Part shown: one piece after another, positions 4,680-10,122 of the stretch
Numbering within the stretch: the first letter of the stretch is position 1
Layout: each line of letters starts with the position of its first letter
Origin: Thermodesulfobacteriota bacterium
Lineage (GTDB): Bacteria; Desulfobacterota; WTBG01; JAGOGO01
DNA: 32,000 nucleotides
Direction: 5' to 3'
Assembly (NCBI GenBank): GCA_026625185.1
Contig: CP113000.1
Coordinates: 1,935,622 to 1,967,621, forward strand
Translations under genes and position numbers: made by a program
Notes under the pieces: model-generated
What the model was told of the DNA's origin: nothing
Databases searched by the model: none
What the model saw: only the letters and a program-made list of their open reading frames with translations

Positions 4680-6188
4680 TTAGTTCTCGCCGCCGGTTTT
4701 TGACGAATACAGTTCAAACCCCCGGGCAGCCAACTCCAGCGCTTTCACCATCCCTTTGGCTTTATTTTCAACTTCCTCTAATTCCCTTTGCGGGTCAGAA
4801 TCCGCCACAATTCCGGCTCCGGCCTGAAGATATATTTTTTCATCTTTAACAAATATCGTGCGGATAGTAATCGCCATATCCATATTCCCATTAAACCCGA
4901 TGTACCCTACTGCTCCTCCGTAAGGCCCTCGATTGACCGGTTCCAGCTCGCGGATGATTTCCATGGCCCTTACCTTGGGAGCGCCGGTTAAGGTCCCGGC
5001 CGGAAAGGTTGCCTTGATTACATCAAAGGCGTCTTTATCCTTTTCCAGATAAGCCTGGATATGAGAGACCAGATGCATGACATGGGAATAGCGTTCAACC
5101 ACCATCAGCTCATTGACCTGTACGCTTCCAATCCTTGCGATCCTTCCGAGGTCGTTTCTCCCCAAGTCGACCAACATTATGTGCTCAGCTCTTTCTTTCG
5201 GGTCATTCAAAAGCTCGTCCGCCAAGCGGCGATCTTCGCTTTCGGTTTTCCCTCTCCCTCTGGTGCCCGCAATGGGGCGAAGTTCCGCCAGCCCGTCAGT
5301 CAAACGGACCATTATCTCGGGAGACGATCCCACAACCACTAACTCTTTGAAACGGAGAAAAAACATATACGGTGAAGGATTGATATACCGGAGCGCCCGG
5401 TAGAGATCAAATTCATCAGCCACTTTGTCGGTGGTAAATCTGCGGGAAAGAACCACCTGAATTATATCCCCCTCCTCAATATACATCTTTGATCTTAGTA
5501 CCGCCTCCTCAAACTCTTTTGGTCCCAGATTTGGCATCAGAGAGATCTTGCCTTCTCTGATCACGGGCCGGGGCTTTTTTTGTTCCTTAGTTAGCTTTTT
5601 GATTAGGTCTTCGATTTTTTTGATAGCTCCTTGGTAAAGCTCATCAAGGTCATCGTGTTCGTTGATGAGGGTGTTGGCGATAATTTTTACGGTGTTTTTC
5701 TGATTGTCAAAAATAAGCAGAAGCTCGGTGATCATAAAGATAGCTTCTTCCTCGCTGAAGCTGTTGTTTTTTCGAGGAGGAAGCTTTTCAAAATAATCGA
5801 TCATTTCGTAGGCAAAAAACCCCACTGCCCCCCCAAAAAACCGCGGGAGGTCATTAACTGTGACCGGACGGTAGCGCTCCATCAATTTTCTGAGGCAGTT
5901 CAGAGGGTCGCCATGATGGGGAAACGAGGTTGTATTATCATGCTCCTCAATGATCACCTGGTCACCTGCTACCCGAAAAATTACTGAAGGTTTGACACCC
6001 ACCAAACTGTACCTTCCCCATTTTTCTCCACCTTCCACGCTTTCCAATAAAAAAGAATAAACCTTATCATCTATTGTTTGAAAGGCGGAAACCGTAGTTT
6101 CCTGGTCGGCTAAAAATTCCCGATACACGGGGATTAGGGTGCCTTTTTTCGCCAGTGTTTTAAACTCGGAAAGATTTGGGTGATACAT
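4680..6188 (-). CDS. trpE: anthranilate synthase component I
   Basis: 502-aa ORF. It has the LLESVEGG Trp-feedback motif, VLSRRF, GTLTGAPKVRAMEII and GPYGGAVGY. First gene of the operon. Confidence 0.95.
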   Translation of the reverse strand: MYHPNLSEFKTLAKKGTLIPVYREFLADQETTVSAFQTIDDKVYSFLLESVEGGEKWGRYSLVGVKPSVIFRVAGDQVIIEEHDNTTSFPHHGDPLNCLRKLMERYRPVTVNDLPRFFGGAVGFFAYEMIDYFEKLPPRKNNSFSEEEAIFMITELLLIFDNQKNTVKIIANTLINEHDDLDELYQGAIKKIEDLIKKLTKEQKKPRPVIREGKISLMPNLGPKEFEEAVLRSKMYIEEGDIIQVVLSRRFTTDKVADEFDLYRALRYINPSPYMFFLRFKELVVVGSSPEIMVRLTDGLAELRPIAGTRGRGKTESEDRRLADELLNDPKERAEHIMLVDLGRNDLGRIARIGSVQVNELMVVERYSHVMHLVSHIQAYLEKDKDAFDVIKATFPAGTLTGAPKVRAMEIIRELEPVNRGPYGGAVGYIGFNGNMDMAITIRTIFVKDEKIYLQAGAGIVADSDPQRELEEVENKAKGMVKALELAARGFELYSSKTGGEN

Positions 6189-6247
6189 TTTTTTTACGCT
6201 CCTTTTTACCCAAAGGGCTCAAATAAATTTTATTTGTTTTAAAGTTT

Positions 6248-6280
6248 AAAAAAAAGACCGTGATTTTTTTTTGCACGGCC
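6248..6280 (-). terminator. attenuator hairpin B (distal intrinsic terminator upstream of trpE)
   Basis: Minus-strand RNA reads GGCCGUG-c-A9-u-CACGGUC, a 7-bp stem with one G.U pair, followed by U8 (plus-strand A8 at 6248-6255). The G.U pair becomes an A-C mismatch on the plus strand, which supports minus-strand function. Confidence 0.55.
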
Positions 6281-6294
6281 TTTTTTGGTTATCG

Positions 6295-6337
6295 AAATAA
6301 AAAAAGCCGTGGATATCTGAGAAGTTTATCCACGGCC
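6295..6337 (-). terminator. attenuator hairpin A (proximal intrinsic terminator after the leader ORF)
   Basis: Perfect 10-bp stem GCCGUGGAUA / UAUCCACGGC (plus 6327-6336 / 6306-6315) with an 11-nt loop. Followed on the minus strand by U7-A-U3. Confidence 0.7.
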
Positions 6338-6360
6338 TTTCATTTTTTTATGAAGATCCC

Positions 6361-6441
6361 CTAACGGTGGTGGATAAACCTCCCGCTTTGCCAGCACCAC
6401 CACCATTCCCAGTTTAAAATATTGGTTAATGAGTAAATCAT
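6361..6441 (-). CDS. Trp-rich leader peptide of the trp operon (26 aa)
   Basis: Manual translation gives ATG ATT TAC TCA TTA ACC AAT ATT TTA AAC TGG GAA TGG TGG TGG TGC TGG CAA AGC GGG AGG TTT ATC CAC CAC CGT TAG, i.e. MIYSLTNILNWEWWWCWQSGRFIHHR*. Five Trp fall within 7 codons. AAGGAG lies 15 nt upstream, which is a long spacer. Sits 170 nt upstream of trpE, and its 3' end is complementary to the terminator arm. Confidence 0.65.
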   Translation of the reverse strand: MIYSLTNILNWEWWWCWQSGRFIHHR

Positions 6442-6483
6442 GACTGCTACGTCAATCTCCTTTTAAAAAATTAATAGTTTTTG

Positions 6484-6514
6484 ATAATAAAACAATCCTT
6501 AAAACAAATGTCAA
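6484..6514 (-). promoter_or_regulatory. candidate sigma70-type promoter of the trp leader/operon
   Basis: On the minus strand: TTGACA (6514-6509), a 19-nt spacer, then TATTAT (6489-6484). The -35 is a perfect match and the spacer is longer than optimal. Confidence 0.4.
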
Positions 6515-6571
6515 GAGTTTTTTTAAACGGTTTTATGCCTCACTTATTTTTTATGTGAGGAGCGAATAAGT

Positions 6572-7450
6572 CTATAACTCGATTTCTAACCCTTCCTGCG
6601 CCACAATACAATCCATCCTCCCTCCCCGGCGTTTTATAATTTCCAAACATCGGATTCCGATTTTATCAAGATCCGCATCAGTGTGAGAAGGGTCATGGTG
6701 AAAAAGAAAGCACTTTTTAATTTCAGCGGCCATGGCAACAGTGAGCACATCTTCATAGTGAGAATGCCCCCACCCCTTTTTGTTTTGATATTCCTCTGGA
6801 GTGTATTGGGCGTCGAAGATCACAAGTTCAGCACCTTGAATAGCATGAATGATTTTTAAATTATAATCATCACAGGAGATATGATTAGTCTTCGGTTTTT
6901 TTATAGAGCCGGAGACAAATTCGTTATCCGTTAAATATCCAATCGTCTTATTTCGATGAGTGATAAGATAGCCGAGGGTGTTTCCCGGATGGTTAAGAGA
7001 AAGAGCTTTTACCGTAAAGTCATCGATGAAATAAGGTCCTTCAGTGAGCGGGTTGAACGTGAGGATGGCTCCGAGCTTTTTTAAAGGAACGGGGAAATAA
7101 GAACTTTCCATCTGATCAGAAAGGACTTTGCTCAATTTTGTTTTTTGGTTTTCGCAGCCATAAATCGAAAAACGATTATCTGCGCAAAAGGCAGGGGCAA
7201 AAAAAGGCAACCCTTGGATGTGATCCCAGTGGAAATGAGTCAAGAAAATATGACTCATAATTTTCTTTTGGGTTTTTATAAGATGGTTTCCCAGCTCTCT
7301 GATTCCGGATCCAGCATCAAAAATAATATGCTTCTCCTTATCAAAGGTTACGGATACGCAGGGCGTGTTGCCTCCGTATTTTACCGTCCGGGGACCTGGG
7401 GTAGGAATGGATCCCCTTGTCCCCCAAAACTTCACCGCAATTTTGGTCAT
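6572..7450 (-). CDS. MBL-fold metallo-hydrolase
   Basis: KFWGTRGSIPTPG...GGNTPCV...DAGSGIR...LTHFHWDHIQGLPFF (HxHxDH metal motif) ...HHDPSH. I prefer the ATG at 7450 (MTKIAVKFWG) over the TTG at 7462 used by the ORF track. Confidence 0.85.
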   Translation of the reverse strand: MTKIAVKFWGTRGSIPTPGPRTVKYGGNTPCVSVTFDKEKHIIFDAGSGIRELGNHLIKTQKKIMSHIFLTHFHWDHIQGLPFFAPAFCADNRFSIYGCENQKTKLSKVLSDQMESSYFPVPLKKLGAILTFNPLTEGPYFIDDFTVKALSLNHPGNTLGYLITHRNKTIGYLTDNEFVSGSIKKPKTNHISCDDYNLKIIHAIQGAELVIFDAQYTPEEYQNKKGWGHSHYEDVLTVAMAAEIKKCFLFHHDPSHTDADLDKIGIRCLEIIKRRGGRMDCIVAQEGLEIEL

Positions 7451-7947: not shown

Positions 7948-9033
7948 TCATTTTTTAATGTTCTCCAACAAATAAGGGATAAGCGGCTCTTTCTTACCCT
8001 TTAAAGTCTTTTGAGACAGTTTTTTTGCTATAATCTTTTCTTTAACCATTTCGTACGTAGATTCGCTCAAAAGAATTTGCCCTGCTAAAGCCACCCCTTC
8101 TAAGCGTTGGGCTATATTTACCGTGTCGCCGACAATGGTATAATTCATTGCCCTTTCGGTTCCCACATTTCCAAAGATGACCTCTCCGGTACTTAATCCA
8201 ATGCCTAGACCTATTTTTTTCAGTCCTTCTTGTACCCATTTTTTTTGTAAATTAACGAACTCCCTTTGCATATCTACCGCTGCTTTAACTGACCTTAAGG
8301 CATCATCAGGATAACCCATAGGAGCCCCAAAGTAGGCCATTATTGCATCCCCTATATATTTATCAAGCGTTCCCTGATAATCAAAAATTACCTGTGTCAT
8401 TTTCTGAAAAAAATGATTTAAAGTGCTTACCACTTTTTCAGCGGGATGCGTTTCAGCAAAATTTGCGAAACCCCGAAGGTCAGCAAAGATAACTGTCACG
8501 ACCCTCTTTTCCCCCCCTAATCTTAAAAATTTTTCCGGGTCACTTAAGACTAAGTTGGCAATTTCATCGGAGAGATAAACCCTAAAGATTTCTCTCATCC
8601 GCTCCTTTTCTTCTTTTTGCTTTCGCTCTAACTCATCCCTCAAGTAACGCATTTGCAAAAGGGATTTAACCCGAGTTAAAAGTTCCAATTTATTGAAAGG
8701 CTTGGATAAAAAATCGTCTGCGCCGGCTTCGATTCCTTTAACTTTATCTTCTATCTCCTTTAACGCGGTTATCATTACAATGGGGGTAAATCGGGTTTTT
8801 TCATTTTTTTTTAAAAAACTACAGACCTGATACCCATCGAGCTTGGGCATCATAACATCGAGGAGGATGAGGTGAGGATCGCAATCTTCAACCACCATTA
8901 ATGCTTCTTCACCATCAAAAGCCTTTAAAACATCATACCCGGCCGCGCTGAGGTGGCCCTCCAGAAGTTCAACATTCTGCATATTATCATCAACGATCAA
9001 AATTTTTGAATATTGTGGAAGAGAGTGGTTCAT
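7948..9033 (-). CDS. response regulator receiver fused to class III adenylate/guanylate cyclase
   Basis: N-terminal REC domain (ILIVDDNMQNVELL...LILLDVMMPKLDG...KPF). C-terminal cyclase domain (VTVIFADLRGFANFAE...DKYIGDAIMAYFGAP...GNVGTERAMNYTIVGDTVNIAQRLE). Confidence 0.9.
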   Translation of the reverse strand: MNHSLPQYSKILIVDDNMQNVELLEGHLSAAGYDVLKAFDGEEALMVVEDCDPHLILLDVMMPKLDGYQVCSFLKKNEKTRFTPIVMITALKEIEDKVKGIEAGADDFLSKPFNKLELLTRVKSLLQMRYLRDELERKQKEEKERMREIFRVYLSDEIANLVLSDPEKFLRLGGEKRVVTVIFADLRGFANFAETHPAEKVVSTLNHFFQKMTQVIFDYQGTLDKYIGDAIMAYFGAPMGYPDDALRSVKAAVDMQREFVNLQKKWVQEGLKKIGLGIGLSTGEVIFGNVGTERAMNYTIVGDTVNIAQRLEGVALAGQILLSESTYEMVKEKIIAKKLSQKTLKGKKEPLIPYLLENIKK

Positions 9034-9429: not shown

Positions 9430-9468
9430 TATTGGTATTATCAAATTAGATTAAAATAATTAATTACT

Positions 9469-9586
9469 GAGATAAAGCCACACCCGTCGTGAGGCGGGGC
9501 CGGAAAGCCACGGGTCTTAAAATTGAAAGATAGCCGTGTTGCCAAAAAAGCGATCCGGTTTTTTCTTTATCTGCGTCACGATAAAG
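9469..9586 (+). promoter_or_regulatory. structured 5' leader of the pilin gene (candidate cis-regulatory RNA, class unknown)
   Basis: Nested helices. AGATAAAG (9470-9477) pairs with CTTTATCT (9565-9572). A GNRA hairpin CCCGTC-GTGA-GGCGGG lies at 9483-9498. CCGGA (9500-9504) pairs with TCCGG (9554-9558), followed by T6. CACGG (9509-9513) pairs with CCGTG (9534-9538). A competing hairpin is CTTTATC (9565-9571) with GATAAAG (9580-9586). Confidence 0.3.
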
Positions 9587-9681
9587 GTGCGGGATCAATA
9601 AAAACAACAAAAAATGATATCGGCAGGAAAATACCGTACACCGTACAAATTAAACATGTTACTGGGGAGCTCAGAAAAACA

Positions 9682-10122
9682 ATGAAAAAAAGAAAAGGAA
9701 TATTTCGGAGCCTAAAAGGGTTTACCTTGGTTGAGTTGATGATTGTGGTTATCATTATCGGTATTCTGACCGCAGTTGGCGTGCCTCTTTATATGGGGTA
9801 TGTCCGAGACGCCAAGGCCGCATCTGCTCAGGCGACTATTGGCGTTATTGTCAACGCCGAAAAACTTTACCACCAATTTCATGGGACATTTAAAGGTGGT
9901 ATTGACGTTTCGACTGTTCCTAATGACTTAAACATTGATGTCCGGGATGCGACCCAGTATTGGACGATCATAATTCCAAGTGCTTCCGATACTAACTTCA
10001 CGGCCTTAGCTACCGGGAAAGCAGGCACTGATTATGAAGGAATTCAAGTCGAACTTAAATACGATATGGCTAATCCAGAGGTATGGATCTTTAGAGAAAA
10101 CGGGATACAATGGAATACATAA
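9682..10122 (+). CDS. type IV pilin-like protein (prepilin-type N-terminal cleavage/methylation domain)
   Basis: MKKRKGIFRSLKG|FTLVELMIVVIIIGILTAVGVPLY is the class III signal with the G-F cleavage site and Glu+5. The start was moved to the ATG at 9682 (GGGGAG lies upstream). The 53-aa extension in the ORF track is not pilin-like. Confidence 0.85.
   Translation: MKKRKGIFRSLKGFTLVELMIVVIIIGILTAVGVPLYMGYVRDAKAASAQATIGVIVNAEKLYHQFHGTFKGGIDVSTVPNDLNIDVRDATQYWTIIIPSASDTNFTALATGKAGTDYEGIQVELKYDMANPEVWIFRENGIQWNT

Follow-up and report, generated by a model that had tools for sequence, protein, structure and literature searches.

How the tryptophan operon of a Thermodesulfobacteriota bacterium is controlled is the question raised by the short region that precedes its trpE gene. 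The operon lies on the minus strand of a stretch of 32,000 nucleotides of contig CP113000.1 (assembly GCA_026625185.1, forward-strand positions 1,935,622 to 1,967,621), the whole of which is called the window here and within which all coordinates are counted. A previous reading of the letters alone (the original prediction) had placed at positions 6248-6514 an unannotated leader open reading frame (ORF) with Trp codons and an attenuator with two terminators in tandem, and had supposed that its wiring differs from that of E. coli trpL. Our analysis upholds the leader ORF and the attenuator upstream of trpE, but leads to another wiring. We propose that the element is a six-segment ribosome-mediated attenuator sensing charged tRNA-Trp, in which a core switch is relayed to a second terminator, B; judged from sequence comparison and RNA folding models, this statement as a whole has in our estimate a probability of about 0.55. 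Its parts differ in strength. That the element is a functional Trp leader-peptide attenuator following the classical E. coli trpL logic appears very probable, whereas the relief of terminator B through pairing of segments 4 and 5 is, according to the models, an evenly balanced proposal.

All the elements named in the original prediction, namely the promoter, the AAGGAG motif, the 26-codon ORF with its five Trp codons and both hairpins with their U-tracts, were found where it had put them. Read from the sequence in the direction of transcription, the leader begins with the −35 hexamer TTGACA (6514-6509, minus strand, as for all the elements of the leader) and a −10-like TATTAT (6489-6484), separated by a long spacer of 19 nt; TG-n-TTTATT, with a 17-nt spacer, would be an alternative −10. 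TTGACA is invariant among six aligned leaders and was also seen by eye upstream in more distant loci, and the relatives carry TAnnAT-like −10 hexamers at a spacing of 17-19 nt. A Shine-Dalgarno-like AAGGAG follows at 6462-6457, at a sub-optimal 15 nt before the leader ATG. The trpL-like leader ORF (MIYSLTNILNWEWWWCWQSGRFIHHR, 26 codons plus TAG, identified by sequence reading and translation) occupies 6441-6361, and its regulatory Trp codons, five TGG in seven codons (codons 11, 13, 14, 15 and 17, within 6391..6411), stand at 6411-6409, 6405-6397 (three) and 6393-6391. The string TGGTGGTGG occurs once in the 32-kb window against 0.10 expected. The start codon of the leader is ambiguous, the candidates being the ATG at 6441 and the upstream GTG of four close relatives (L067, L001, L071 and L115), in which an in-frame GTG precedes the conserved ATG by 9 nt and has a Shine-Dalgarno spacing of 6 nt.

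Downstream of the leader, trpE (4680..6188, minus strand) encodes anthranilate synthase component I of 502 aa (TIGR00564, 550 bits against a cutoff of 517.7) and is the first gene of the regulated operon, since the ORFs that come after it match trpG, trpD, trpC, trpF and trpB. A short ORF enriched in codons for Trp, the product of the pathway, stands just upstream of trpEGDCFB, as is expected of a leader-peptide attenuator. The end of the hairpin B region is 59 nt from the trpE ATG, and reading by eye, with no scan, revealed no promoter between the two in the window. A scan of consensus sigma-70 promoters (spacer 16-18 nt) and terminators (loop 3-8 nt) called none of the leader elements: the leader promoter is missing from its calls because the 19-nt spacer is outside the permitted range, and hairpins A and B are missing because their 11-nt loops exceed the 8-nt limit.

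The leader RNA can be divided into six segments joined by a chain of mutually exclusive pairings, as the original prediction had anticipated for part of it. Segment 1 (AAUGGUGGUGG, 6407-6397) is the anti-antiterminator arm and pairs with segment 2, which spans 6383-6363, lies in codons 20-26 of the leader and has the stop codon at its end. Helix 1:2 is made by UGGUGGUGG of the Trp codons and CCACCACC from the final codons of the ORF; it involves the part of segment 2 at 6373-6363 (CCACCACCGUU), and appears in the minimum free energy (MFE) hairpin, as inverted repeat I15 and as UGGUGG:CCACCA in the RNAalifold consensus. The other part of segment 2, at 6383-6370 (GGAGGUUUAUCCAC), pairs with segment 3 (6340-6320), which comprises the 5' arm of terminator A at 6340-6327 and the antiterminator partner GUGGAUAAACUUCU at 6333-6320, reaching into the A loop. 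This antiterminator has 14 bp with two G.U pairs. The perfect complementarity of GUUUAUCCAC (6379-6370) to GUGGAUAAAC (6333-6324) that was initially noted as a 10-nt helix is real, and covaries, but the length given was too short. Overlapping the 5' arm and the loop of A, the 2:3 pairing excludes terminator A.

Hairpin A pairs GCCGUGGAUA (6336-6327) with UAUCCACGGC (6315-6306) around a loop of 11 nt. Its 3' arm and the U7 that follows (6305-6299) make up segment 4 (6315-6299), of which 6311-6299 alternatively pairs with segment 5. The latter (AAAAAAGGCCGUG, 6286-6274) forms the 5' arm of terminator B and repeats that of A. The alternative 4:5 pairing, CACGGCUUUUUUU (6311-6299) with AAAAAAGGCCGUG, covers 13 positions with one G.U, and this complementarity, which had been part of the original prediction, is present in the sequence. 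Segment 6 (6262-6248) consists of the 3' arm of B, CACGGUC (6262-6256), and U8 (6255-6248), so that hairpin B pairs GGCCGUG (6280-6274) with CACGGUC across another 11-nt loop. A repeat search of the window recovered every one of these pairings independently (inverted repeats I15, I4, I2, I8 and I9), and the leader of the window (241 nt) folds at −68.3 kcal/mol with z = −4.25, a value equalled by 0 of 200 shuffles. In addition, a 16-nt direct repeat (D3, 88% identical) links 6268-6283 with 6325-6340, over the 5' arms of B and A, and points to a partial duplication of terminator A as the origin of B.

The leader peptide ends in His-His-Arg, written CAC CAC CGU by codons 23-25 (6364-6372, minus strand). 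This ending seems to be dictated by the pairing of the RNA to UGG UGG, and not by what the peptide requires: CCACCACC is set by the Trp codons, and with it His-His in the peptide. The chain of constraint goes on from there, as GUGG in segment 3 and then CCAC in segment 4 are fixed as well.

To what extent this architecture is shared was addressed with relatives chosen through TrpE similarity, a choice not conditioned on the leader, by a genome scan, a metagenome scan and the contigs of homologs. The comparison set comprised 17 leaders, that of the window and those of 16 other loci. All 16 loci with upstream sequence and a TrpE at least about 59% identical (59-92%) share the layout, that is, a short ORF with WWW or WWWW upstream of trpE, a CCAC-containing segment 2 at or near its stop codon, and hairpins A and B, each with a U-rich tail. 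The run of Trp codons that the original prediction had proposed to look for in alignments is thus found in every one of them, and the two intrinsic-terminator-like hairpins in series, likewise foreseen, are conserved in the 17 leaders. These loci are labelled Thermodesulfobacteriota, Desulfobacterota, Deltaproteobacteria, Syntrophales, Syntrophus sp. and Syntrophobacterales, together with one metagenome-assembled genome (MAG) labelled Pseudomonadota. The layout was absent from TrpE relatives at 52% identity or less (Nitrospinota, Margulisiibacteriota, Clostridia and others).

Within the set, the leader peptides are almost wholly divergent except for the Trp run and the C-terminal residues set by segment 2 (MLKVQLSTMNWWWQPSKQGVDRR in L122, for example). 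The loops, the distal stem of A and the A-B spacer (21-43 nt) are variable. The cores GCCGUG and CACGGC of the two hairpins show no change or are conserved to 88% or more. Constant cores in both hairpins alongside a freely covarying distal stem of A are what is expected if four segments have to stay mutually complementary. In all 17 leaders the U-tract behind hairpin A counts five or more U within 8 nt, and hairpin B has in each of them a GC-rich stem of 6-8 bp, lengthened by A:U pairs and followed by a U-rich tail. A generic repeated terminator or an element resembling repetitive extragenic palindromes was considered, given that GGCCGTG is found 7 times in the window; this candidate was rejected, the other five copies being scattered and 1 of 100 shuffles reaching 7.

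Trp-rich leader ORFs of other kinds were encountered upstream of trpE during the survey. A Phycisphaerae MAG (L009, 1260-1355) has one beginning MRNINKQNLNENWWLWRWQ with one downstream terminator hairpin, and a Burkholderiales MAG (L019, 1381-1434) has MNVFTKSAPWWRWQIWR, with a fold that includes no clear terminator. In uncultured Lachnospiraceae (L035, 1072-1170; L039, 1358-1459; L040, 1380-1469) ORFs beginning MNWWRVFSDWK overlap a strong terminator hairpin, and L040 has one terminator only. The Lachnospiraceae ORFs may represent Trp leader-peptide attenuation in Firmicutes, where trp genes are usually under T-box or TRAP control.

Folding and covariation bear on whether the helices have been maintained as such. 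Without constraints, every one of the 17 leaders has an MFE structure containing 1:2, A and B, and the consensus that RNAalifold derives from a plain MAFFT alignment is made of exactly these three helices. All five helices (1:2, 2:3, 3:4, 4:5 and 5:6) are possible in each of the 17, so that the chain of mutually exclusive pairings is kept throughout. Pair counts were obtained from a gapless segment alignment anchored on the hairpin bases and compared with 500 shuffles, with slid registers as a control; 1:2 was assessed by per-leader energies, as the (UGG)n run pairs in differing registers among leaders. For helix 2:3, 90% of the cells are paired and 12 show double changes, against 4.7 +/- 1.7 in shuffled alignments (0/500 reach this value; slid registers at most 53%). 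Helix 3:4 has 90% of cells paired and 14 double-change cells against 4.3, and helix 5:6 has 86% and 8 against 2.8, with 0/500 shuffles reaching either. Helix 4:5 has 82% of cells paired (at most 54% when slid) and 9 double-change cells against 7.0 +/- 2.1, a value reached by 126 of 500 shuffles. No slid register exceeds 61% of cells paired for any helix tested. Since pairing and double changes surpass those of the shuffles and the slid registers, the alignments mark the antiterminator and both terminators as evolutionarily supported helices; the 4:5 complementarity, on the same evidence, rests on conserved sequence and not on compensatory change, and the invariance of its core speaks neither for nor against the helix. 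The covariation test proposed in the original prediction therefore came out positive for the antiterminator and the stems of A and B, but not for the pairing between segments 4 and 5.

When a ribosome is placed at the stop codon, the structure of lowest energy is A plus B in 17 of 17 leaders, in agreement with the termination state originally proposed, and the same is obtained with no ribosome. When the footprint of a stalled ribosome is masked and the transcript ends after segment 5, the MFE structure is 2:3 plus 4:5 in 14 of the 17. The 4:5 hairpin has an energy of −10 to −22 kcal/mol, close to that of 5:6 in the same leader; [2:3+4:5] and [2:3+5:6] lie within 1 kcal/mol of each other in 7 of 17 leaders, the gap reaching up to 12 in the others. 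The barrier estimated between these two states is 8-17 kcal/mol, and an identical procedure applied to the experimentally validated 2:3 to 3:4 switch of the E. coli trp leader gave 5.8 kcal/mol.

These data can be assembled into a working model. When Trp is scarce, a ribosome stalled on the WxWWWxW run would cover segment 1 and halt just before segment 2; with the A site on W15 (6399-6397), the coordinates place the end of a footprint of about 13 nt near 6386, short of segment 2 (6383). Segment 2 would be freed, and 2:3 would form ahead of the transcription of segment 4. As 2:3 is made before segment 4 has been transcribed, terminator A could not form. The unpaired segment 4 (CACGGC plus U-tract) might then, as an extension of the core switch, pair with segment 5 (A-tract plus GCCGUG), which would also block terminator B (5:6) and let RNA polymerase read into trpE. 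When Trp is plentiful, a ribosome reaching the UAG directly after segment 2 would cover this segment, so that 3:4 would terminate at A; if there is no translation, 1:2 would form, and 3:4 would again terminate at A. Any polymerase that escapes A would subsequently meet 5:6, terminator B. Segment 4 is complementary to segment 5 in all 17 leaders because segment 5 directly repeats the 5' arm of A, and their pairing is plausible on steric and energetic grounds. Expression of the operon requires B to be bypassed, as no promoter was seen between B and trpE.

More tentatively, and on the folding models, one ribosome signal might disarm two serial terminators, through 2:3 and then 4:5, with B working as a time filter or double check. 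RNA polymerase would need roughly 55-75 nt more to pass B, and the ribosome would have to remain stalled in the meantime; were it to resume, it would strip 2:3, after which 3:4 could re-form, segment 5 would be released and B would fire. If this is true, only sustained Trp starvation would get past B, and the basal level would be very low; the element would then be a naturally occurring 'double-lock' attenuator, shared by Syntrophales-like Thermodesulfobacteriota.

Several alternatives have to be set against this model. The original prediction had a five-segment attenuator in which a free 'seg1' (GUUUAUCCAC) acts itself as the antiterminator, has no upstream partner and makes the element unlike E. 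coli trpL. The complementarity of GUUUAUCCAC to GUGGAUAAAC on which this scheme was built is real and covarying, but the upstream helix AAUGGUGGUGG:CCACCACCGUU was overlooked, even though it belongs to the MFE structure in the window and in all the orthologs and to the RNAalifold consensus. Because the Trp codons pair with CCACCACC, which overlaps 'seg1', the latter is the canonical segment 2. The scheme turns out to be that of E. coli with its segments renumbered, and the claimed difference in wiring is an artefact of numbering; we leave it a very small chance indeed of being right. The palindromes could otherwise serve a dimeric repressor as operators, or form RNA hairpins for a protein recognising GGCCGUG stems, and the nearly invariant GGCCGUG...CACGGCC core common to both hairpins could indeed mark a binding site. 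The distance between half-sites varies (the loop of B has about 4-12 nt, and A carries an extra distal stem), unlike in an operator of fixed spacing; each hairpin is followed by a U-tract; and the stems covary as RNA helices. Variable half-site spacing and RNA-type covariation led us to reject the DNA-operator form. Moreover, the Trp-codon ORF and the antiterminator already account for regulation, and no candidate regulator gene was seen beside the operon, so that a protein-binding function of the palindromes, in either form, is highly improbable.

The alternative that comes closest in weight to the proposed relay concerns the coupling of B to the core. A classical four-segment trp attenuator could be followed by an uncoupled terminator B that is always formed and serves as a constant fail-safe lowering expression, the likeness of its arms to those of A being a relic of duplication. 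Such an arrangement is in keeping with the direct repeat D3 of the 5' arms, which fits an origin by duplication, with full-length equilibrium folds, which always include B, and with the covariation of 5:6, which is hence selected as a hairpin in itself; tandem terminators of which only one has an evident antiterminator occur in the rimP-leader of some Gammaproteobacteria (PMC2965389). Further points count against the relay. Covariation of 4:5 is not significant, its score being 0.184 against 0.170, with 112 of 500 shuffles reaching it, and its complementarity could have been just inherited from the duplication of the terminator arm (D3). Three leaders (L116, L118 and L119) do not have 2:3 plus 4:5 as the MFE structure at the intermediate transcript length, and two of them, L118 and L119, have A-U in place of G-C at the base of B (alignment columns 93:115), with segment 4 not altered to match. 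For the full-length transcript under the stall mask, equilibrium prefers A plus B in 16 of 17 leaders; read-through must therefore be kinetic, and thermodynamic folding and findpath barriers are rough proxies for kinetics. Weighing on the leader ORF of the model, the window has GTA where close relatives have GTG, which leaves its ATG at the 15-nt distance from AAGGAG. On the other hand, a strong terminator that always formed directly ahead of trpE would set a ceiling on induced expression. Hairpins independent of each other should diverge by compensatory change, yet the GCCGUG and CACGGC cores match in A and B down to a TrpE identity of 59%, even though the loops, the spacers and the distal part of A vary. 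In the 14 leaders mentioned above, the MFE structure at the transcript length that matters has segments 4 and 5 paired. We consider an uncoupled B unlikely, although well short of negligible, and retain the six-segment attenuator with a relay to B as the preferred reading.

The window contains a further candidate regulatory RNA. A c-di-GMP-I-GGC riboswitch (RF03167) is matched at gathering level at 9468-9547 on the plus strand (66.7 bits, E 7e-14), the sole Rfam match at the gathering threshold and unrelated to the trp leader; it is just upstream of, or overlaps, the listed start of an ORF at 9523-10122 (plus strand). Near it, a receiver-domain protein is encoded at 7948-9033 (minus strand), whose N-terminal residues (about 140) match PleD and other response regulators.

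An attenuator before a trp operon is not surprising in principle, yet this one is conserved and cleanly structured, and its distinctive feature is terminator B, a second, sequence-related terminator conserved across Syntrophales-like bacteria. The element can be described as a trp attenuator specific to this lineage, in which a terminator has been duplicated and a relay of the his type is plausible. No paper on this arrangement, on tandem-terminator leader-peptide attenuators or on trp leaders of Syntrophales, Syntrophus or delta-proteobacteria was found in a literature search that was limited and is not a proof of novelty. Our findings add a conserved family of trp leader-peptide attenuators in an uncultured or syntrophic lineage of anaerobes, the Syntrophales-like Thermodesulfobacteriota, for which no Rfam model was found, and permit the annotation of a leader ORF that gene callers pass over. 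If the 4:5 relay is true, one sensor would govern two terminators via shared arm sequences, providing compact, tight and time-filtered control that might serve as a template for synthetic attenuators.

How the element relates to systems already described can be seen from database models and from the architecture itself. Rfam RF00513 (Trp_leader) had no match at the gathering threshold in the window and none at E <= 10 in 6150-6600, and T-boxes had none at the gathering threshold in the window nor in a permissive search of 6150-6600. That permissive search also returned sub-threshold Thr_leader and other hits, which reflect two generic hairpins. The trpB non-coding RNA motif RF04312, a candidate riboswitch of Firmicutes and Fusobacteria (PMC11109978), resembles the element in having two hairpins, the second a terminator, and in being sometimes near trp genes, but it belongs to other phyla and was described without a leader ORF (PMC11109978). 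It matched each strand of 6245-6347, at 31.9 and 27.9 bits, below its gathering score of 59, and was rejected as a generic match to two hairpins and a U/A-run.

The core is closest in design to E. coli trpL, with which it shares the tandem-Trp leader ORF before trpE, a segment 1 over the Trp codons that pairs with segment 2, a 2:3 antiterminator, a 3:4 intrinsic terminator with U-tract and a kinetic decision, the stability of the terminator equalling or exceeding that of the antiterminator. It departs from it in having three to five Trp codons where E. coli has two, a segment 2 inside the ORF (CAC CAC, His-His), an antiterminator of 14 bp and a second terminator, and in belonging to the Thermodesulfobacteriota/Syntrophales lineage and not to the Gammaproteobacteria. 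The whole chain is reminiscent of the his leader of Salmonella and E. coli, in which six segments pair as A:B, C:D and E:F or, alternatively, as B:C and D:E, and which was reportedly described as a six-segment leader by Johnston et al. in 1980. Segments 1 to 6 correspond to A, B, C, D, E and F, respectively, and in the trp leader, as in the his leader, the masking of the first segment would propagate, domino-like, through two alternative helices to the last terminator hairpin, although the equivalent of D:E (4:5) has no covariation support here. Three helices in the terminating state and two shifted ones in read-through are the mark of the his type, and both states appear in the folding models, the terminating one as the MFE structure in 17/17 leaders and the shifted one in 14/17 under the stall mask with the transcript ending after segment 5. 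What sets the trp leader apart is that its codons are for Trp and not for His, that the arms of its two terminators repeat each other, and that its middle hairpin (3:4, equivalent to C:D), a plain stem in the his type, has a U-tract of its own and would thus be itself a terminator.

Terminators in series are known from other leaders as well. The rimP-leader of some Gammaproteobacteria has two in tandem in one 5' leader (PMC2965389), but it lacks a leader peptide, inverse CCCg...cGGG motifs are found in its stems and no relay has been proposed for it (PMC2965389). In Desulfovibrio, two THI-elements each have their own terminator (PMC545781), as reported in a study of delta-proteobacterial regulons that did not treat tryptophan (PMC545781). 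Like tandem riboswitches and T-boxes, the trp leader places two serial termination checkpoints before a biosynthetic operon; unlike them, with their one sensor per terminator, it has a single leader ORF in front of both.

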